A stretch of 64,000 bases of DNA from Candidatus Dormiibacterota bacterium. Lineage in GTDB: Bacteria; Patescibacteriota; Saccharimonadia; UBA4664; DATLOE01. The position numbers and the translations under genes were made by a program. The stretch spans positions 6,899-70,898 of the forward strand of contig DATLOE010000006.1 in the NCBI GenBank assembly GCA_035536395.1, given 5' to 3'. The notes beneath the pieces were generated by a model that made no database searches, was not told the DNA's origin, and saw nothing but the letters and a program-made list of their open reading frames with translations. Below, one piece after another: positions 3,067 through 62,215 of this stretch; position 1 is the stretch's first letter; the number at the start of each line of letters is the position of its first letter.

Positions 3067-3684
3067 GTGGGAATTACGGAATCTTTAGCGTCTTACGCAA
3101 TAAACTTAATTAACGATCTCGGTTACGGAGGCCTGGCCTTCGGCCTTATTATCGATTCAGCCGGTGTGCCTATTCCTTCCGAGGTATTAATACCGGCAGC
3201 AGCAATTCTAGCTAAAGAGGGCCGGTTTGATGTAGTGGTGATGATGGCTGTGGCGACTCTTGCCCAAACACTGGGCGCAGTGATTGCATACCATATAGGC
3301 CTGCGGCGGGGACTGCCATTTATACGCAAGTATGGCAAATACGTTTTAATTTCTAACAGGGAGCTCAACTTAACCCACCGCTGGTTTGAGCGCTATGGCG
3401 AAGGCTTAACCTTTGTTGGCCGCTGTATGCCGATTATCCGCGGCTACATCGGCTTCGTAGGGGGGATTGCCGAAATGCCGTTTAAGCGCTTTTTGGCGGC
3501 TTCTTTTATAGGATCACTAACCTGGACTATCATTCTGACGGTGTTGGGCTACATGGTAGCCGATAATATGCACCGGATAGAGGAGATAATGCGGCCGTTT
3601 TCGATTGTGATTGCACTCGGCTTGGCTTTTGGCATGGTATATTTCATAATTCATAGAATTCGCAGTAATAAGGAAAAAGCGTGA
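3067..3684 (+). CDS. DedA/SNARE-associated family membrane protein
   Basis: 205 aa. Contains the GRCMPIIRGYIGFVGG motif characteristic of the DedA family. Its start abuts the uppP stop. Confidence 0.7.
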   Translation: MGITESLASYAINLINDLGYGGLAFGLIIDSAGVPIPSEVLIPAAAILAKEGRFDVVVMMAVATLAQTLGAVIAYHIGLRRGLPFIRKYGKYVLISNRELNLTHRWFERYGEGLTFVGRCMPIIRGYIGFVGGIAEMPFKRFLAASFIGSLTWTIILTVLGYMVADNMHRIEEIMRPFSIVIALGLAFGMVYFIIHRIRSNKEKA

Positions 3685-4964
3685 AACAGCGTATTACCAC
3701 CCTCCCTAACGGACTTAGAATTGTCACCTCCCATATGGCCGACGCCCAAAGCGTAACGGTCTCTATTATTGCTGGTGTCGGCAGTCGGTATGAGGACTAT
3801 GAAGTAAATGGCGGTGTATCGCATTTTCTGGAGCACCTACTTTTTAAAGGCACCAAGAAATGGCCGGGAGCTAAGATAATCTCGGAAAAAATCGATGCCG
3901 TTGGCGGCTACAATAACGCCTACACTTCTAACGACATGACTAATTACTTTGTGAAAGTTCCGCACCAGCATGCACCACTGGCCATGGATATTCTAGCCGA
4001 CATGATCAGAAACCCCTTGCTTGATCCAGTTGAGACAGATAGAGAGCGTAACGTTATTTTGGAAGAAATGAATGTATACCGAGATGACCCCAGCCGGTAC
4101 GTCGGCTCCTTGCTGCCGCCGTTGCTGTGGCCAAACCAGCCGCTTGGCCAAGATGTAATCGGCAGCGAAAAGGTGATCCGGGAAATTCCCCACGCGCGCA
4201 TAGTCGGGTACCACAAGCTTCACTACCGTCCTGATAATTTAGTAGTGGCAGCTGCCGGCAAGGTCGATCATGATGCGATAGTGACTCAGGCTAAACAGCT
4301 GCTGGGCGGTCTAAAAAAGTCGACCTTGGCAAAAGCTGCTAGAGCTAAGGACACCCCAGCCGCGGATAAGGTGGGAATTCTAGCTAAAGATACTGCCCAG
4401 ACTCATTTAATAATCGGCACTTACGGCTACAAGTTCTTAGACAGGGATAATCCGGCGGCTCAAATAGTAACGGCTATCCTTGGCCGGGGGATGAGCTCGC
4501 GCCTATTTATTAATGTGCGTGAGCGTAAAGGGCTGGCTTACAGTGTGAATGCCTCGATTCACAGCTTTGCCGACACCGGTGTGTTCGATGTTTATGCCGG
4601 CGTAAATCTAGACAAAACTACATTGGCTATTGAAGCCATAATGAAAGAACTAGAGCTGATTTGCTCCAAGAAGGTTGCGGCAAGGGAGCTTAATAAGGCT
4701 AAAAACCAGCTCAAGGGCGGGCTGCAAATGTCGCTAGAGAGCAATTTTTCCGTGGCCGACCGCCTGGCTACTCAGCTGATTTTGGTTAATAAGATTAAAA
4801 GCGTAGAAAAGATTTTGCAGGAAATAGATGCCGTAACACCAGAAGATGTGCTGCGGGTAGCTCGGAAAATGCTAGATCCCCAGAAGCTGCGCATGGCTAT
4901 TATTACCCCCAACCCTGAGCCGGCCGCTAAAACATTTCGTAAACTAACAGGAGAGCTATCATAA
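3681..4964 (+). CDS. M16 family zinc peptidase (PqqL/insulinase-like)
   Basis: 427 aa. HFLEHLLFKGT is the inverted zinc-binding motif HxxEH of M16 peptidases. The start overlaps the dedA stop. Confidence 0.8.
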   Translation: MKQRITTLPNGLRIVTSHMADAQSVTVSIIAGVGSRYEDYEVNGGVSHFLEHLLFKGTKKWPGAKIISEKIDAVGGYNNAYTSNDMTNYFVKVPHQHAPLAMDILADMIRNPLLDPVETDRERNVILEEMNVYRDDPSRYVGSLLPPLLWPNQPLGQDVIGSEKVIREIPHARIVGYHKLHYRPDNLVVAAAGKVDHDAIVTQAKQLLGGLKKSTLAKAARAKDTPAADKVGILAKDTAQTHLIIGTYGYKFLDRDNPAAQIVTAILGRGMSSRLFINVRERKGLAYSVNASIHSFADTGVFDVYAGVNLDKTTLAIEAIMKELELICSKKVAARELNKAKNQLKGGLQMSLESNFSVADRLATQLILVNKIKSVEKILQEIDAVTPEDVLRVARKMLDPQKLRMAIITPNPEPAAKTFRKLTGELS

Positions 4965-5473: not shown

Positions 5474-5503
5474 CTCCTTCTCTGATATAATTTGTTACGT
5501 CCT

Positions 5504-5579
5504 GCCCTCGTAGCTCAGTGGATAGAGCGCCTCCGTCCTAAGGAGGGCGTCGGGAGTTCGAATCTCTCCGAGGGCGCCA
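5504..5579 (+). tRNA. tRNA-Arg (anticodon CCT)
   Basis: A cloverleaf can be drawn. Acceptor GCCCTCG/CGAGGGC, anticodon stem CCTCC/GGAGG with loop containing CCT, T-loop TTCGAAT, and a 3' CCA. Confidence 0.8.
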
Positions 5580-5599
5580 TGAGCTGTCGCTTGAGCTTT
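5562..5599 (+). repeat. Direct repeat copy 1, covering the 3' end of tRNA-Arg plus ~20 nt of downstream flank. Its partner is at 5726-5762.
   Basis: atctctccgagggcgcca + tgagctgtcgcttgagcttt reappears at 5726 with 18/18 identity followed by 16/19 identity. Confidence 0.8.
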
Positions 5600-5725
5600 T
5601 TCGAGCTATAGCTCATGGTTCGGAGAGTGAGAACTCCCGCTGAGTTCGGTGGACGAGGAGCGCAGGAAATAATGAGCTGGCTCAAATTATTTCCGAGCAC
5701 CGCAGGGAGAAGGCTGCAGGCCGCT

Positions 5726-5762
5726 ATCTCTCCGAGGGCGCCATAAGCTATCGCTTGGCTTT
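5726..5762 (+). repeat. Direct repeat copy 2, a partial duplicate of the tRNA-Arg 3' end. It forms an attR-like scar 163 bp downstream of the gene.
   Basis: atctctccgagggcgccataagctatcgcttggcttt. It contains the tRNA T-arm 3' half, acceptor 3' half, discriminator and CCA. Confidence 0.8.
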
Positions 5763-5847
5763 TCCTGTATGACAAATCTTTGCAAACAACACTTCTTATG
5801 CCAGAATGGGTATGTCTGATCTTTGAATTTACAAAGGAGTTGTTGTG

Positions 5848-6147
5848 ATGCTCCGCACGGTAGAACAAGAACAATCACCGACAACCTGTAGCCACGGAAT
5901 TTTGATACGCGGCTCGGGTATGAAGCTGGGCATTTCTAGCATTAACCTGCCCGAAAGAAGGATTTGCGTCTCCTGCGGAAAGACCGAAACGGCCGATGAG
6001 GACGGATTTTTCAAAAACCTGACGGTCGAGCCCGTACGTACGGTCTCGCTGCAAGAACTCACTCACTATCAAGGCGACCATCCAAATGCCGTGCGGCTGC
6101 GAGAAGAAGTGGCAGATGAGGGGCACATAATAAGGGGCGCGGAGTAA
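5848..6147 (+). CDS. Hypothetical small protein with putative zinc-binding residues (C14/H16 ... CxxC)
   Basis: AAGGAG RBS 8 nt upstream of the ATG at 5848 (the ORF track starts at GTG 5845). 99 aa. Followed by an intrinsic terminator. Confidence 0.5.
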   Translation: MLRTVEQEQSPTTCSHGILIRGSGMKLGISSINLPERRICVSCGKTETADEDGFFKNLTVEPVRTVSLQELTHYQGDHPNAVRLREEVADEGHIIRGAE

Positions 6148-6157
6148 TAAGATCGGC

Positions 6158-6190
6158 AAGGCGGGCTATAATAGGCCCGCCTTTTTCATT
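6158..6190 (+). terminator. Rho-independent terminator
   Basis: aaggcgggctataataggcccgcctttttcatt. A GC stem of 8-9 bp is followed by a T-run. Confidence 0.7.
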
Positions 6191-6225
6191 GGCGAAAATC
6201 CTTACGCCTGCATTACAATATAGAT

Positions 6226-6753
6226 ATGGAAAAAAAGTTTGAACCGGAATTTCCCGGCCAACATCAAGATGAAAAGATAGAACTGGTATTTCGTCAGCAC
6301 CCCATTGTACTCAGAAAAGAGCTGATAATAGGGCTGCTTATTATACTAGCCGGTACCGGCCCGCTGTTGCTTTTTCCGCTGTCGGATCTGGCCATGAAGA
6401 TCTTAATAGCCAGCCCCATAATCACCTTGGCCTACTGGTTCTACCATTGGATCGGCTGGCACTATAGTATTAATATTCTCACCGATAGCCGGCTAATATC
6501 CATTAAGCAAAGAGGCTTCTTTAATCGTAAAGTAAGTGAGGTGGGGCTAGATAGGGTGCAATCGATTAATTACCATATTAAAGGCCTGCAGGCAGCTCTG
6601 TTTAAGTTCGGCGATATTACCGTGCAGACTTTTAGTGGGGAGTGGCTAATGAAATCTATTAGCCATCCGGTAGAAACACATACCAAAATGATAGAAGTAG
6701 CCAGAAAAGTCTCCAAGGAGTTTGTACCTACCTCGACAGTGCCCGATAAATAA
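6226..6753 (+). CDS. Membrane protein with bacterial PH (bPH_2/YdbT-like) domain
   Basis: 175 aa. Two N-terminal TM helices are followed by a region resembling bPH_2 domains. Confidence 0.4.
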   Translation: MEKKFEPEFPGQHQDEKIELVFRQHPIVLRKELIIGLLIILAGTGPLLLFPLSDLAMKILIASPIITLAYWFYHWIGWHYSINILTDSRLISIKQRGFFNRKVSEVGLDRVQSINYHIKGLQAALFKFGDITVQTFSGEWLMKSISHPVETHTKMIEVARKVSKEFVPTSTVPDK

Positions 6754-6809
6754 GGTAGATTAAATATTAACGTAACCGCAAACAGCGGCTAATTAAATGG
6801 AGTGGTATA

Positions 6810-7847
6810 TTGAGCGAAGACAGCAAGCGTAAAACCGGCCGGAAATCACCAGCAAAGAAAACATCAGCCAAAAAAACTTCGGCGGTAGCTAGCGCCACGG
6901 TAATGCCTTCGGGTACAGGTCAGAGGCGCCTGACTGACGATAATCGCAGAGCGCTTTTGATTGCAGCTGCTATTATTTCAGCCCTGCTAGCCATATTCTT
7001 AATCGTTTTTGGTGTACTGATTTACAAATATAAGAGTGATAGCCGAGCAGTTCAGCTGGCGGCAGCCATTGTGCCTTACCCGGCCGAAAAGGTGAATGGT
7101 AGTTTTATAACTTATAGTGATTACCTATTTGAAGTTAATTCGATTAAGCACTACTACTTAAGCCAAACCACCCCCGACAATAAGCCAGCTATAGATTTTA
7201 ATACCCCCGAAGGCAAGACACGACTCAAGGAGCTGCAAAAACAGGTACTAGAGCAGCTCAAGAGTGATGCTGTCGTGAGGCAGCTGGCTAATAAGAATAA
7301 GATATCTGTATCTGACAAAGAGGTAAAAGAACAAGTAGACCAAATTACTAAATCTGCCGGCGGGGAAGCTAAGGTAAAAGAAGTGCTGAAGAAATTCTAT
7401 GGTTGGGATACTGGCGACCTGAAGAAAAAGATTCACTTCCAGCTGCTTAAGCAAAAGCTGGCTACAAAGATTAGCAGTGATGAGACTTCTAACGCCCAAG
7501 CCAAGGCCAAGGCTGAAGATGTCTTGAAGCAGGTTAAGGCCGGCACCGACTTTGCCGAGCTGGCTAAGAAACATTCTCAAGATTCAACTGCCGCAAATGG
7601 CGGAGACCTGGGGCTGTTTGGCAAAGGGCAGATGGTGCCTGAATTCGAAAACGCCGCCTTTGCGCTGCAGCCAGGGCAGACCTCTGAGATAGTTAAGACC
7701 AAATTCGGTTATCACATCATTAAGGTGACTGAAAAGAAAGATGACCAAGTGAAGGCCTCTCACATCTTAATTAAAGCCATCGATTTCGATCAGTACCTAA
7801 AGGATGAACTGGCTAAGGCCAAAGTTACCCAATACATCAAAATTTAG
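6810..7847 (+). CDS. Membrane-anchored parvulin-type peptidyl-prolyl isomerase (PrsA/SurA-like)
   Basis: TTG start with a GGAGTGG RBS. Basic N-terminus plus one TM. The C-terminal PpiC domain [21 protein letters not shown]...GYHIIKV is typical of parvulins. Confidence 0.75.
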
Positions 7848-7859
7848 GTAGGGTTTAAT

Positions 7860-9047
7860 ATGTGGCACCTGCCTTCACAGAGTTTTCATCTTTTTAAACT
7901 GACCGACCTACGCGAAATGTACGCGGCGGAAATGATCAAATTCCTCTCGCTAGGCTTGGTCGGTATATTCATTCCTATATACCTCTACACTAAAGGCGTA
8001 CCGCTGACTCTAATTATTGCTTTTTTGCTGTGGTCGACTATTTTACAGATTGGAGCGGCCTGGCTAGGGGGTAGCCTCATACCCAAGTATGGGGTTAAGC
8101 ATCTTTTGGGTGCCTCCTTTATTCTGGCTTTTGCTTATTTACTGGCCCTGGCGGCCTTTAATCAGGTATGGGTATTGTTTGCGGTTATTGCTCCGCTGTA
8201 CGCGGTAGCAGAGAGCTTCCATTCTGTCGCGTATCACTATGAATTCTCTAAGGTTAAAGATGCGGACCATAGCGGCCAGCAGTTGAGTAATGTAACAATC
8301 ATGGTTCATCTAGCCGCGGCCATCGGGCCGTTTTTAGGAGGCGTGATTGGTGCCATTTACGGTTTACAAATGACTCTTTTCGTTTGCCTCGGGCTTATGG
8401 TGCTAGGTATCGGCCCGTTATTTGCCACACGAGATATCAAACCCAGACACAAGCTTGATATGAGTAAAATCAGCTTAATGAAAATAAAGAATGATTTAAT
8501 TAGTTATAGCGGACGAGGCTTGGAGTATGTAGTTACGCTGCTAGTGTGGCCGCTATTTATGTTCCTATTCCTCGGCAGTCTGGTGGAGGTTGGAGCCGTG
8601 ACCACAGTAGCTCTAATGCTCACACTTTTTGCCAGCTACTTTATCGGGCGGCTGACCGATCGGGGCTATAGGGCGCGGCTGATAAGAATCGGCAGCATTA
8701 GTAATGCGATGGCTAATGTAGCCAGGATGCTAGTAACCGGACTAGGCTCAATACTTGCGGTTAATATCTTTAGCGATATCACTCGCGCCATAGTGCGCAT
8801 TGCCTGGGGGGCGCAGTATTATAGCAATGCCGACCGCCACAGTCGTCTGGAATACATCGTGGCGATGGAGCTGGCTGCTTACTCAGGAAGGGTACTGCTG
8901 TTTGCGGCTATGTTGGCTGCTAGCATAGTGGCTTCTGCCAAGGCAATATTCATAGCTGCCTTTGCCGTTACCGCCCTGGGCATGCTTTTGGTAATGAAAA
9001 TTGATCAGAAGGCCAAGCGCACTAAAATCTACGTCGGGCATTATTAA
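7860..9047 (+). CDS. Polytopic membrane transporter (MFS-like)
   Basis: 395 aa with about 12 predicted TM helices. No recognisable catalytic motif. Confidence 0.45.
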   Translation: MWHLPSQSFHLFKLTDLREMYAAEMIKFLSLGLVGIFIPIYLYTKGVPLTLIIAFLLWSTILQIGAAWLGGSLIPKYGVKHLLGASFILAFAYLLALAAFNQVWVLFAVIAPLYAVAESFHSVAYHYEFSKVKDADHSGQQLSNVTIMVHLAAAIGPFLGGVIGAIYGLQMTLFVCLGLMVLGIGPLFATRDIKPRHKLDMSKISLMKIKNDLISYSGRGLEYVVTLLVWPLFMFLFLGSLVEVGAVTTVALMLTLFASYFIGRLTDRGYRARLIRIGSISNAMANVARMLVTGLGSILAVNIFSDITRAIVRIAWGAQYYSNADRHSRLEYIVAMELAAYSGRVLLFAAMLAASIVASAKAIFIAAFAVTALGMLLVMKIDQKAKRTKIYVGHY

Positions 9048-9216
9048 AGGAAAACCCCCGAGTGTCCATACTCAGGGGTTATTGGAGGATACCGTTGGTT
9101 ATTAAGCAATTCTTCGGGTCTTTGATGCCGTGCGCGATTAAAAGCGTAAAAGCATGGCCTAGAGCCTTTTCAAAGGGCATCAGGTATAGCTCCACAGTCT
9201 TCTAAGGGTAAAATTA

Positions 9217-9621
9217 CTAGCTTCTGCCAGTAGTAGGCTTGTCATTATTCAGGTCCGAAGCCAATAACTTGACCAAGCCTTCATCCAGGCAACTCCGTGT
9301 AGCCTCCGCCAGTTCTTCGATAAATTCCTGATTCAGGCGGTAGAAATGCTTTAATGCTCCCCTCCGCGGCTCGATTCTGGTCATCTTGATTAGACCGTTG
9401 TCCGCCAGCCACCGGAAGTGATAACTGATACTGCCTAGCCGCCCCCGCCCCGTAATAGTTGCTGCCACCTCTACCGGGCTCATCTCAGTTAACTTGGTCG
9501 CTTTCATGATCTCTATACGCAGGGGATGCGAAAGGGCTGCTCCCAATAAAACTATCTTTGCTATATCGTCCTCGGAAGTATTAGTCCCGATCTTTGCTAG
9601 CTGTGCGGGGGTCATTTCCAC
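9217..9621 (-). CDS. Winged-helix transcriptional regulator (ArsR/MarR-like)
   Basis: 134 aa. HTH-like region LTEMSPVEVAATITGRGRLGSISYHFRWLADNGLI. Confidence 0.5.
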   Translation of the reverse strand: MEMTPAQLAKIGTNTSEDDIAKIVLLGAALSHPLRIEIMKATKLTEMSPVEVAATITGRGRLGSISYHFRWLADNGLIKMTRIEPRRGALKHFYRLNQEFIEELAEATRSCLDEGLVKLLASDLNNDKPTTGRS

Positions 9622-9758
9622 CCTTCTATATCAGAATTTTCAAGGTAAAGGGTCATTTAAGCTATAAATCAGCTTTTTTGCAAGCATAAGAAAAACCCAG
9701 CATAGCATTATTGTCAGGTAGGTGGCTTTTTGGTAGTATTAATCAGTTAATTTGACGC

Positions 9759-9835
9759 GGGCTCGTGGTGTAGAGGCCTAACACGCCTCCCTGTCACGGA
9801 GGAGATCGCCGGTTCGAATCCGGTCGGGCCCGCCA
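9759..9835 (+). tRNA. tRNA-Asp (anticodon GTC)
   Basis: Acceptor GGGCTCG/CGGGCCC, anticodon loop CTGTCAC, T-loop TTCGAAT, 3' CCA. Followed by the hairpin gaaaagcg...cgcttttc and a T-run. Confidence 0.8.
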
Positions 9836-9927
9836 AGAAAAGCGTATGACTTTGTGTCGTGCGCTTTTCTTGTGTGCCAACACTATTCGGACTGGTGAAG
9901 CCGGGGCGTAAAATAAGCGGAGTGTAA

Positions 9928-9950
9928 TTTCTCGAATCCGGTCGGACCCC
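9928..9950 (+). repeat. Partial duplicate of the tRNA-Asp 3' end, from T-loop to acceptor, about 95 bp downstream of the gene
   Basis: ttctcgaatccggtcggacccc versus the tRNA sequence ttcgaatccggtcgggcccgcca, with a 14-nt identical core. Confidence 0.65.
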
Positions 9951-9968
9951 TTATGTTATATTTGTGGC

Positions 9969-10385
9969 GTGGTTAAGAAATCTCTAAATCGAAGAAGTTG
10001 GCTCTTTCTGCCGGCACTGGTTGCGTTATGGCTGGGGGCCTTTTGGCTAGTCAACCGCGTGCCCTCATCCGGTTGTGCCGCCGGAACCGTCAGCGCTCAT
10101 AATAAGGAGCACCGCATAGTCTTTCAATCCGGCAAGGTTGCGCCATCATGCACCCGTCTTACGGCAGGAGAGAGCGTTACTTGGGTCAATCAGACCAACA
10201 AAGAAGTGGAGATTGGTGCCGACCCTCACCCAGTCCATACCGGCAATCACGAGGTGTCCTCCGGCGAGTTTGTTCTCAGAATATTGCCTGGCCAAAGCGC
10301 AAAGGTTATTATAAAAAAGAAGGGGAGTTTTGGCTTTCACGATCATGCTAACCCGTCAGCGCATGGAACCATCATTGTCAAATGA
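9969..10385 (+). CDS. Secreted small protein, possibly a cupredoxin-like beta-sandwich; His-rich
   Basis: Signal peptide or TM at the N-terminus. His-rich motifs PHPVHTGNHEV and FHDHANPSAHG. Fold assignment is tentative. Confidence 0.35.
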   Translation: MVKKSLNRRSWLFLPALVALWLGAFWLVNRVPSSGCAAGTVSAHNKEHRIVFQSGKVAPSCTRLTAGESVTWVNQTNKEVEIGADPHPVHTGNHEVSSGEFVLRILPGQSAKVIIKKKGSFGFHDHANPSAHGTIIVK

Positions 10386-11131
10386 AACGTATAGATATTA
10401 AATCTGACATCAACCTAGATTACGCCACAGAGATGAACTATCCTTGGGCCGATAAACTTATTGTTAAGATTCACTGGTGGAGCTTTGGCGGCTTGGCCTT
10501 ATTTGCCTTCCTAGCCGCGGTGGTCAAGATTGCCAACTACTATCCATCGCCGCTATCTTGGCGGGTAATGAGCCCGGCCGAGGCCTTAGGTGCCTTGGTG
10601 CTTGGGTTATTAAGTTCCGCCTTGGTCACACTGGCGCACGGGAAGATCAATAACCACTATTATTGGCGCTTGCTGGTCACCTCCACGCTGACCATCTACG
10701 CCTACCTGATGGTTTTCATTGCCGGTGGGGCTATAGAAATGCACTTTATCTTTTTTGCCATGATCACCTTGGTGCTGATTTACTCTGACTGGCGGCTAGG
10801 CTGGTTGATGTTGGTGCTGGTGGCCCTCCACCACGGCATCCTTAACTACATTGCACCGTTCTGGGTTTACCAGTATGGCCGTAACGACCTGGCGCTCTTT
10901 GCGCATTCCTGGCCGGTACTGATAGCAGTAATCTTTACCACCATTCTGGCCAATAATAACCGTCGATCAGTTCGACAGCTCAAGGACGCTCGTAGTAGCT
11001 TGGAGAAGAAGGTTCAGGCCAGAACGGCCGAACTGCGCAAGTCCAACCAGCGGATAACCAACATTCTGCAAGGCATTCTTGATGAAGGTCCGACCCGGCG
11101 TAGCAGGAAAACTGAAAAAGAAACCTTCTAG
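10382..11131 (+). CDS. Membrane protein resembling the sensor/transmembrane portion of a histidine kinase, ending after a signalling helix with no kinase domain
   Basis: 5-6 TM helices followed by KKVQARTAELRKSNQRI. The ERTAEL-like S-helix is typical immediately before a DHp domain, but the ORF stops at 249 aa. Start overlaps the upstream stop as ATGA. Confidence 0.4.
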   Translation: MKRIDIKSDINLDYATEMNYPWADKLIVKIHWWSFGGLALFAFLAAVVKIANYYPSPLSWRVMSPAEALGALVLGLLSSALVTLAHGKINNHYYWRLLVTSTLTIYAYLMVFIAGGAIEMHFIFFAMITLVLIYSDWRLGWLMLVLVALHHGILNYIAPFWVYQYGRNDLALFAHSWPVLIAVIFTTILANNNRRSVRQLKDARSSLEKKVQARTAELRKSNQRITNILQGILDEGPTRRSRKTEKETF

Positions 11132-11216
11132 CAGTTTTAGTGTGTGAGCTCCACACGATTAGGACAGCATGAGCACATTGAATGCTTTTTCAGGGTGCGC
11201 TATAATGCACTATAAT

Positions 11217-11516
11217 ATGGCATCGGAGTTTCCAAGATTAAATGACATACTGCCCAATAGTGATAAGGGTAAAAAGTCTAAGCGCACGAAAAAGGCGGTG
11301 AGCCCTGAGCCTGTTGACCTGAGCTATTACGATACCCGCCAGCAGGATGCAGGTGAACCGGTGACACAGGCCAAGTTAAAATCTAAGCCGAAGAAGCCAA
11401 AAAAGAAGGGCCGTATAAAGAAACTCTTATGGCGACTATTCTTGACGCTTCTAGTCCTTGGCCTTACAGCAGGCATAGGTGGTTTCATTTACTTCTATTA
11501 CTACTACCCGGTTTAA
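11217..11516 (+). CDS. Hypothetical Lys-rich protein with a C-terminal TM anchor
   Basis: Tandem TATAAT boxes at 11201-11216 immediately upstream of the ATG at 11217, giving a leaderless configuration. The track ORF begins earlier at 11169. Confidence 0.4.
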   Translation: MASEFPRLNDILPNSDKGKKSKRTKKAVSPEPVDLSYYDTRQQDAGEPVTQAKLKSKPKKPKKKGRIKKLLWRLFLTLLVLGLTAGIGGFIYFYYYYPV

Positions 11517-12407: not shown

Positions 12408-12427
12408 CTGGAGCGGGTAGCGGGAAT
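12408..12427 (-). repeat. 20-nt duplicate of the tRNA-Gly 3' end, covering T-stem, acceptor, CCA and one further nucleotide. It lies 157 bp downstream of the gene.
   Basis: ctggagcgggtagcgggaat is identical to 12565-12584. The intervening segment has a terminator hairpin and a T-arm-like hairpin gcgggaagcgaacccgc. Confidence 0.75.
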
Positions 12428-12565
12428 GTGGCTGCACCACCTCCGCAAAGTGCTCGCCAAATTCCTGCAAGCAGTATTTGTCTGCGCGCTTTGCTGCACC
12501 GAACCCTGCGGGTTCGCTTCCCGCTTACCTCAACAAAAACGGCCACGCATGGTGACCGTCTTTGC

Positions 12566-12639
12566 TGGAGCGGGTAGCGGGAATCGAACCCGCCTCTCGA
12601 CCTTGGGAAGGTCGCATTCTACCGATGAACTATACCCGC
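12566..12639 (-). tRNA. tRNA-Gly (anticodon CCC)
   Basis: The reverse complement reads gcgggtatagttcatcggtagaatgcgaccttcccaaggtcgagaggcgggttcgattcccgctacccgctcca. Confidence 0.8.
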
Positions 12640-12640
12640 A

Positions 12641-12716
12641 TGGAGCCGATGAGCGGGATCGAACCGCTGACCTATGCTTTACGAAAGCATTGCTCTGCCA
12701 GCTGAGCTACATCGGC
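12641..12716 (-). tRNA. tRNA-Thr (anticodon CGT)
   Basis: The reverse complement reads gccgatgtagctcagctggcagagcaatgctttcgtaaagcataggtcagcggttcgatcccgctcatcggctcca. It is in tandem with tRNA-Gly. Confidence 0.8.
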
Positions 12717-61757: not shown

Positions 61758-62215
61758 GAGATGAATTATGGCTGCAGCAGCTTCTGGATGAAACCTGGGA
61801 TAAGTACTTTGCGGATGTCCCGCAAGATAATATTGTGCGGATAAAATTTGGCCGCCGGGCTCGTACTCGGCTGGGTTCAATCAGGATTCACCCCGACCAC
61901 CCGGATACTACCGAAATCACCCTTAACGGGCTGTTCAGGGATCCGGCGGTGCCCGAGTTTGTAGTACTTGCAACTCTGGTGCATGAAATGATTCATTACG
62001 CGCATGGCTTTAATTCTCCCCTGGAACAGAAGCACAGGCATCCGCACGCCGGCGGTGTGGTAAGAGCCGAGTATCGGGAGAGGGGGCTGGAGGAGCTCTA
62101 CTTAAGGCAAAAAAAATGGCTGAAAGCTAACTGGCCAGACATATTAAGAGCCAACTTCCAACCTGTAAAGCGAAGAATTGTAAAAAGAACAATACCCAAG
62201 CCGTTCTGGTTTTAA
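61754..62215 (+). CDS. SprT-like zinc metalloprotease domain protein
   Basis: HExxH in LVHEMIHYAHG, about 150 aa. The ATG at 61754 overlaps the helicase TGA (ATGA), indicating translational coupling. Confidence 0.55.
   Translation: MRDELWLQQLLDETWDKYFADVPQDNIVRIKFGRRARTRLGSIRIHPDHPDTTEITLNGLFRDPAVPEFVVLATLVHEMIHYAHGFNSPLEQKHRHPHAGGVVRAEYRERGLEELYLRQKKWLKANWPDILRANFQPVKRRIVKRTIPKPFWF

Follow-up and report, generated by a model that had tools for sequence, protein, structure and literature searches.

Small Non-Coding Modules With Direct and Inverted Copies of tRNA 3' Ends Behind tRNA Genes of a Patescibacteria Genome

Similar non-coding modules of about 160 bases are located behind at least two, and probably three, tRNA genes of an uncultivated bacterium in the 64-kb stretch of DNA that was analysed (hereafter, the window). 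The modules have a common architecture, recur at several tRNAs, carry similar cores, contain no genes and are absent from the nearest relatives. They may represent, in a reading that is put forward tentatively, a small family of non-coding, tRNA-specific and non-autonomous insertion modules of approximately 115–165 bp in a Patescibacteria (Saccharibacteria-like) lineage. Partial tRNA copies are usually read as the scars of large islands, whereas the scar here is a defined unit that holds no genes, recurs at several tRNAs and keeps the same layout. The host has a reduced Patescibacteria genome, and the mobile DNA of this group has been poorly characterized.

The duplicated 3' end of tRNA-Arg and its spacer

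The gene for tRNA-Arg(CCT) was located at 5504–5579 on the forward strand by ARAGORN and by the Rfam tRNA model (60.2 bits). Its CCA is encoded, and a TATAAT −10 box is found at 5485–5490. The original prediction held that the 3' end of this gene is duplicated downstream, and this was borne out. The 18-mer ATCTCTCCGAGGGCGCCA, which corresponds to tRNA-Arg positions 59–76, occurred exactly at 5562–5579 and 5726–5743 and at no other site in the 64 kb. The same two sites were returned when up to three mismatches were allowed, and two matches were obtained in 0 of 100 shuffles. Copy A (5562–5600) comprises tRNA positions 59–76 and a trailer of approximately 20 nt, and copy C (5726–5763) comprises the exact positions 59–76 followed by a diverged copy of the trailer. 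Both are on the forward strand, as are all the features of the Arg module given below. With the trailer included, the two copies were identical in 36 of 39 alignment columns with one gap, and the local score of this direct repeat was 32, compared with 10.9 ± 1.9 for shuffled sequence (0/500). All of the 3–4 differences between A and C were in the trailer, and none were in the 18 tRNA bases. Because the identical bases are tRNA positions 59–76, the start of the repeat falls within the T-loop. A direct repeat from the T-loop to CCA has the form expected from insertion into a tRNA 3' end, as had been proposed. The distance from copy to copy, which had been given as 163 bp, was 164 bp when measured from start to start.

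The repeat was also present in an independent assembly. A Logan assembly of the same run (SRR8544467) covered 5523–9147 with 0 mismatches; since a second assembler agreed at every base, the Arg repeat is not the artefact of one assembler. Chance or artefact as the origin of the repeat was ruled out by the shuffles and by the independent Logan contigs for both the Arg and the Gly loci.

The spacer between the two copies was divided into several parts. A hairpin with 18-bp arms, in which the CCA is included, spans 5577–5618 (arms 5577–5594 and 5601–5618), and it forms the centre of an imperfect palindrome with arms of approximately 40 bp at 5551–5639. The hairpin arms differ at three positions, two of which are G–U compatible on the tRNA-sense strand as read from the sequence. 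Part B (5601–5639) is an inverted copy of the trailer, the CCA and the T-arm, from which 5 nt of the acceptor 3' strand are deleted. The T-arm part of B is at 5619–5639 (offset +41..+60), and the inverted alignment scored 22, compared with 10.0 ± 1.75 for shuffled sequence (0/500). The inverted tRNA copy makes up about one third of the spacer. Part D at 5642–5649 (GAGTTCGG) repeats, in direct orientation, the last bases of the T-stem 5' strand together with TTCG, and it pairs with the end of B in a 6-bp hairpin. The remaining 76 nt (5650–5725) form a core that resembles the core of the Gly module. The landmarks of the Arg core are GCGCAG at 5660, CGAGCAC at 5694 and GGGAG at 5705; the core also contains a central hairpin (5665–5673 / 5686–5694) and a small hairpin GGC-TGCAG-GCC (5712–5722). 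Both palindromes quoted in the original prediction were recovered, namely GAGCTATAGCTC at 5603–5614 and the arms GGAAATAAT and ATTATTTCC of the central hairpin. C is trailed by a copy of the trailer of A, and the three trailer copies of the Arg module have diverged about equally among themselves. No ORF was found in 5580–5725, which agrees with the earlier statement that the element is far too small for coding. The possibility that the spacer holds a second, degenerate tRNA was considered and rejected: significance was confined to the T-arm, CCA and trailer portion of the inverted copy, the extension of this copy into the D- and anticodon arms reached only a shuffle-level score, and no second tRNA was matched by Rfam within the Arg spacer at E ≤ 10.

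Related modules in the window and in other genomes

A second module of the same layout was found 7 kb from the Arg module, behind tRNA-Gly(CCC). This tRNA gene (12566–12639, minus strand; ARAGORN and Rfam) is directly preceded by tRNA-Thr(CGT) at 12641–12716, and its module occupies 12409–12565 on the minus strand, the strand of all the parts that follow. The intrinsic terminator of tRNA-Gly (12534–12560) consists of a hairpin and then a T-run. B (12508–12533) repeats the CCA and the T-arm in inverted orientation but lacks approximately 4 nt of the acceptor, and its T-arm part (offset +41..+58) matched at 17 of 18 positions. D and the core together occupy 12428–12506, in which D is GGGTTCGG (12499–12506) and the core has 71 nt with its motifs in the same order as in Arg. 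C (12409–12427) reproduces the final 19 nt of tRNA-Gly, CCA included, without a mismatch. The similarity of the Gly repeat ends exactly at the CCA; the trailers after A and C are unrelated, and C is not trailed by the terminator that is found after A. The Gly module was also present in Logan contig L092 with 0 mismatches. Logan contigs L081, L091 and L092 end inside tRNA genes (at 5538 and 12593–12630 of the window), and these breaks likely reflect 31-mers common to other organisms of the sample, not rearrangement.

The Arg and Gly modules are of comparable dimensions. Their sizes are 164 and 157 bp, and the exact end copies of 18 and 19 nt are at +147..+164 in Arg and +139..+157 in Gly. In both modules, the inverted copy (B) has lost 4–5 acceptor bases, and D, a short T-arm piece in direct orientation that lies 2–5 nt beyond B, pairs with the end of B. 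A third module, shorter and decayed, is located at 9836–9949 on the forward strand behind tRNA-Asp (9759–9835). Its parts are a terminator (9838–9871), the motif TTCGG..GTGAAGC (9886–9901), GCGGAG at 9917 and, at 9932–9949, tRNA positions 56–73 in a direct copy that matches at 17 of 18 positions and does not include the CCA. The 64 kb thus contain two good copies and one degenerate copy, with cores that are approximately 60–65% alike.

A control matrix was calculated in which the 3' portion of each tRNA of the window was compared with the flanks of that tRNA and of all the others. The scores for the own downstream flank (direct/inverted) were 18/12 for Arg and 19/16 for Gly(CCC), and the direct score for Asp was 16. 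The background scores of the matrix were 6–10, and a few reached 12. An inverted 12-mer of tRNA-Pro(CGG) at 61888–61899 was discarded; it apparently lies in coding sequence and is probably a chance match.

The cores were compared between the loci. Arg 5641–5725 aligned with Gly 12507–12428 at a score of 21, compared with 9.0 ± 1.6 for shuffled sequence (z = 7.5, 0/2000 shuffles). The similarity was weaker when piece D was left out, and the score was then reached in 29 of 5000 shuffles and in 6 of 1576 genomic windows. The z value for the Gly and Asp cores was 4.0. The Arg and Gly cores are collinear, and the order of the motifs is kept: measured from D, the motifs GCGCAG, CGAGCAC and G[GC]GGAG and part C lie at distances of 18/52/63/84 nt in Arg and of 19/50/60/79 nt in Gly. 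Leave-one-out profiles were calculated with a third good module from another genome (L043). The profile of Arg and L043 recovered the Gly module at E = 8.7e-4, the profile of Arg and Gly recovered L043 only at E = 2.4 (rank 2), and that of Gly and L043 failed to recover Arg. No similarity was detected between the cores and their own tRNA or the flanks of ±700 bp. Hence, the cores are foreign to their loci, and an origin from the local flanks was ruled out. According to the nhmmer profile and covariance model searches of approximately 0.65–1.1 Mb of related loci, no core members other than the three training copies were present.

The original prediction had also raised the idea of an att-bounded, MITE-like unit, of which other copies might be found in the genome. 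The att-type repeat and the existence of a related module elsewhere agree with this idea; homologous copies of the spacer are present as the Gly module, the degenerate Asp module and the module of L043. However, a MITE would consist of an anonymous sequence in verbatim copies, which does not hold for the spacer, and no verbatim copy of it was found within the window.

The related loci used for comparison comprised 80 species-representative loci with 148 tRNAs and 296 flanks, and 91 related loci were included in wider searches. The order of NDK and then tRNA-Arg(CCT) was kept in about 60 of the 80 species-representative loci, and a second copy of the tRNA-Arg 3' end was found in none of these related loci. 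Fragments of the own tRNA were rare in the flanks (7 of the 296 flanks of 148 tRNAs). The closest available relatives are approximately 68–76% identical at the protein level, and the repeat is absent from them. NDK of the window matched MAGs of Patescibacteria/Saccharibacteria at no more than 76% identity, and the exact NDK protein was found in one NCBI MAG contig, whose Dormibacteraeota label is probably due to binning, and in one Logan run. Among 5.8 billion proteins, no closer relative was detected above 76% for NDK or above 68% for the glycosyltransferase, which ruled out an empty-site comparison. The two loci nearest by the 568-aa glycosyltransferase (L087 and L089, 68% identity) have plain Arg, Asp and Gly tRNA genes and no module. 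In both of these loci, the motif (T)TGGACTTAT was observed immediately after three different tRNA genes (Arg, Asp and Gly), and it may be a common processing or termination signal.

The third good module is located at tRNA-Asp in L043 (UBA6258, Saccharibacteria), with the full layout and similar core ends. L021, which is a sister of L043, contains a shortened remnant. An inverted T-arm copy directly after the terminator was found in L004 (tRNA-Arg) and in L025, L043 and L046 (tRNA-Asp). Furthermore, a mirror-image layout was observed upstream of tRNA-Arg in L073 (6428–6530). At −101 it has a direct copy of tRNA positions 3–18, which carries a TACAAT box of its own, and at −54 the D-arm (positions 12–26) is repeated exactly in inverted orientation. 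This layout suggests a similar process at the tRNA 5' end.

The tRNA-Arg(CCT) gene and its promoter occur either way round relative to NDK, with one orientation in L004, L006, L024, L025, L046 and L048 and the other in L014, L042 and the window. The tRNA-Arg of L006 is 100% identical to that of the window, and its 3' end lies 4 bp from the NDK stop codon.

Gene context and possible origins

The upstream neighbours of the Arg module are housekeeping genes and encode BacA, a VTT-domain protein, an M16 peptidase and NDK. Downstream are a 99-aa ORF and the genes for a bPH protein, PpiC, an MFS protein and an HTH protein. The 99-aa ORF (5848–6147) encodes a CxxC motif and is followed by a strong intrinsic terminator at 6158–6190; it was rejected as an enzyme of the module because it showed no domain of informative value and is located beyond the repeats. 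In L006, L024 and L042, the interval from tRNA-Arg to the bPH gene is occupied by unrelated small ORFs. No integrase, transposase or reverse transcriptase was found in or beside any module, and no recombinase domain was found in the ORFs that neighbour the Arg module. When the window was searched by tblastn with Xer-like, serine recombinase and reverse transcriptase queries, the sole match was a truncated Xer-like gene at 2–337 on the minus strand. This is the 5' part of the gene for a Xer-like tyrosine recombinase and is cut by the edge of the window. It is of the housekeeping type and syntenic in relatives, and in L025 the gene upstream of NDK shares 60% identity with it.

An autonomous element at the same att site was found in none of the 91 related loci, viral contigs, phage records and JGI metagenomes that were searched. 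Exact-pattern scans of the JGI metagenome contigs, with the inverted T-arm piece and with the 3' 43 nt of the tRNA, returned nothing. The scans of viral contigs returned only tRNA-Arg(TCG) genes of jumbo phages and chance hairpins, and blastn against phage records gave no match. The spacer and the core were assigned to no family of Rfam 15, in which the only matches were the tRNAs themselves.

Recombinase and reverse transcriptase genes of three related loci were also inspected. In L050, a truncated serine recombinase ORF (8452–9705) runs into the tRNA-Asp 3' end in antisense. Serine recombinases do not generate long direct repeats, and the L050 gene was rejected as the candidate enzyme on this ground and because it adjoins tRNA-Asp and not tRNA-Arg. 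In L053, a 633-aa ORF for a large serine recombinase, in the region 6536–8543, overlaps the antisense strand of tRNA-Arg(CCT). This ORF is flanked by inverted repeats of 104 nt with 95% identity (6642–6745 / 8440–8543), and a second inverted pair of 175 nt with 99% identity surrounds the next 2.6 kb, in the region 8536–11487. The segments in L053 look like invertible segments. In L087, a 324-aa ORF resembling a reverse transcriptase (RVT_1, weak) is located at 3644–4618 on the minus strand between PpiC and tRNA-Asp, where the window has the MFS gene. It was rejected as a candidate enzyme because it has no counterpart in the window.

In the preferred reading, the modules would have arrived by insertion as pre-formed, tRNA-specific units, and a site-specific recombinase, possibly acting on the folded palindrome, would have inserted them. 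Each module would then be composed of a replacement tRNA end that reaches from the T-loop to the CCA and brings a hairpin or terminator, the same tRNA end in inverted form (B) with 4–5 acceptor bases unpaired, a short direct T-arm piece (D), a core of 70–76 nt common to the modules and the displaced original tRNA end (C). The direct repeat at Arg would thus be a duplication of the attL/attR type, and the tRNA would remain intact because the insert supplies a matching 3' end. An insert with a replaced end also predicts that the Gly repeat stops at the CCA and that the trailers are unrelated. Since the modules contain no gene, they would have been moved in trans or would be dead. The insertion times appear to differ, with Arg and Gly being fresh and Asp being decayed. 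Insertion of this kind, which is possible but held with limited confidence, covers more of the facts than the other readings, these facts being the repeat from the T-loop to the CCA, the inverted copy just after the terminator, the common core and the lineage-specific spread of fresh and decayed copies.

Several points stand against the insertion of pre-formed modules. No recombinase, parent element or empty site in a close relative was found, only three good copies were present in approximately 1.1 Mb of related sequence, and some of the leave-one-out profile tests were weak. A, B and D are specific to the tRNA and would have to be carried beforehand, which leaves the move between tRNA species unexplained. 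Moreover, the att sites of ordinary integrases have no inverted target copy, and the similarity in Arg reaches into the trailer, which is not needed by a simple att core.

It is rather unlikely, though conceivable, that the modules constitute a new miniature mobile element that homes to tRNA genes and carries both strands of the target in a single strand. B would pair with D and the copy of the tRNA end, so that the final third of the tRNA gene would be mimicked in double-stranded form; the core would loop out at the T-loop and a few acceptor bases would be unpaired. A Xer-like tyrosine recombinase of the host or another enzyme could then swap one strand with the chromosomal tRNA gene, in the manner of CTX-phi at dif or of a cassette at attC. 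The product of such a strand exchange would have the order of tRNA, hairpin, inverted copy, core and displaced tRNA end, as observed.

The order of direct, inverted and direct copies is also exactly as expected from fold-back template switching during replication or repair (of the tandem-inversion-duplication or inverted-triplication type) with no mobile element, an origin that is judged improbable. In such an event, the nascent strand would snap back at the terminator hairpin and copy the tRNA end backwards to give B, and a second switch at the T-stem palindrome would restore forward copying to give D and C. Template switching at short inverted repeats is known to give inverted triplications (PMC10766183). 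Both junctions are at hairpins (the centre of the trailer or terminator hairpin, and the hairpin of B and D), in Arg, Gly and L004 B mirrors the tRNA end with the terminator loop as the axis, and the locus-specificity of the tRNA-derived pieces would be automatic. The about equal divergence of the three Arg trailers and the copy of the trailer of A after C are consistent with this process, as are the isolated inverted T-arm copies after terminators in L004, L025 and L046. However, template switching leaves the core of 70–76 nt unexplained, which matches neither the tRNA nor the flank of ±700 bp, and it does not account for alike cores at two loci and in L043 with the same point of interruption in the T-loop. 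The absence after C in Gly of the terminator that follows A and the same unpaired acceptor bases in every copy further argue against it. A quite different origin, considered very unlikely, is that the modules are the remnants of tRNA islands or prophages of kilobase size from which only the arms next to attL and attR are left, as in an extreme CIME. Partial tRNA copies are the standard scar of integration, with repeats from the T-loop to the 3' end being typical (PMC9897764), and CIMEs keep attL and attR without the integrase (PMC5704250). The region from tRNA-Arg to the next conserved gene varies among relatives and holds different small ORFs, and serine recombinase genes abut tRNA-Arg in L053 and tRNA-Asp in L050, although the recombinases of this class that were found would leave no long direct repeats. 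Independent deletions would not yield, at two loci, the same architecture, the same offset of +41, a gap of just 2–5 nt between B and D, and nearly equal sizes (164 and 157 bp). Furthermore, no integrase pseudogene or other coding remnant was found in the modules, and no related full-length island was found in the 91 related loci.

The modules could instead be a functional structured RNA or cis-element of the tRNA genes in which the match to the tRNA is kept by selection, an explanation to which a low probability is given. Such an RNA might be a mimic of the tRNA end with an acceptor strand and a CCA tail, or a device for the processing or termination of read-through transcripts in which B pairs with the T-arm. 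The predicted folds were more stable than those of shuffled sequences (z = −5.3 for 5504–5790 and z = −3.35 for the Gly module alone), and a closing stem between B and C was predicted in both the Arg and the Gly modules. The central hairpin and the TGCAG-loop hairpin stay paired through two-sided changes between Arg and Gly, but the covariation evidence is anecdotal with just 2–3 sequences, and the minimum-energy folds of Arg and Gly differ within the closing stem. C is perfectly conserved while the cores are approximately 35–40% diverged, and of the three mismatches of the Arg hairpin, two are G–U pairs on the sense strand. Against a function of this kind, no promoter-like site was found in or before the module, no Rfam match was obtained, and terminators part the module from the tRNA in Gly and Asp. 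The absence of the modules from the nearest relatives and their decay in Asp and L021 also argue against an important function.

Should the modules prove mobile, no smaller tRNA-targeted integrative elements would be known, and they would point to a targeting principle based on inverted and direct copies of the target around a conserved core. If they are fold-back errors or RNA devices, then tRNA-terminator hairpins would shape the intergenic DNA of small genomes. Either way, the modules can mislead the annotation of tRNAs and islands.

Comparison with known systems

The islands and prophages that tyrosine integrases insert into tRNA genes reportedly include a T-loop sublocation class, for which repeats from the T-loop to the 3' end are said to be typical, an account attributed to Williams in 2002. 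The modules have the tRNA 3'-end repeat of such islands, with 18/18 identical bases in Arg, 19/19 in Gly and 17/18 in Asp. As in the islands and prophages of tyrosine integrases, the 3' end borne by the element keeps the tRNA intact, and a displaced partial copy is found at the far end. Partial tRNA copies from integration are commonplace around kilobases of DNA with an integrase (PMC9897764). In contrast, the modules are 115–165 bp in size and have no integrase or other gene; they hold an inverted copy of the target, and several tRNAs of one genome carry related cores. CIMEs are flanked by att sites and have lost the genes for integration and transfer (PMC5704250). They are alike in being non-autonomous, with attL- and attR-like repeats at a tRNA 3' end and a recombinase that presumably acts in trans. 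The trait of retained attL and attR without integration genes fits the modules, though descriptively only. Whereas CIMEs are decayed ICEs or IMEs of kilobase size beside autonomous kin, the modules have no known parent and are constant in size and architecture across loci.

Folded attachment sites resemble the palindrome of the modules. The attP(+) of CTX-phi consists of two inverted dif-like sites 90 bp apart on a folded single strand (PMC4246890, PMC3442271), and attC of integrons is likewise a folded single-strand attachment site (PMC4792948). Such sites share with the modules two inverted target-like copies, a short spacer and a duplex with unpaired bases; this trait is present in Arg as the palindrome of 5551–5639 with a gap of 5 nt in the acceptor and in Gly with a gap of 4 nt. 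By reasoning only, integration of a folded strand through the exchange of one strand would give the order of target, loop, inverted target, rest and target, which is the order seen. The modules differ from CTX-phi and attC in that the target would be a tRNA gene instead of dif or attI, and in that the element would comprise approximately 160 nt and no genes. There is no sign of a phage, an integron integrase or a single-stranded stage, and the only recombinase gene seen in the window is the housekeeping-type Xer-like gene.

Tandem inversion duplications (TID) occur in Salmonella. TID and the inverted triplications of template switching are similar to the modules in the order of direct, inverted and direct copies and in having both junctions at hairpins. 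However, the modules are on the scale of tens of bases, a foreign conserved core breaks the third copy, and the trailer in Gly is not duplicated. In template switching, all of the insert is copied from the locus, but the core instead matches that of another locus. MITEs are small, non-coding and repeated, and their terminal inverted repeats have a counterpart in B and C of the modules. MITEs carry their own inverted repeats, whereas those of the modules are local copies of the tRNA and differ between Arg and Gly; unlike MITEs, the modules have no short target-site duplication and no parent transposase, and no near-identical copies were seen within the 64 kb. Islands, CIMEs and MITEs do not pair an inverted target copy with a conserved core at constant geometry, and the layout could not be matched to any described mobile element or RNA family. 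On this ground, the modules were set as a variant of tRNA-targeted integrative DNA, and there is a real chance that they are more unusual than such a variant.
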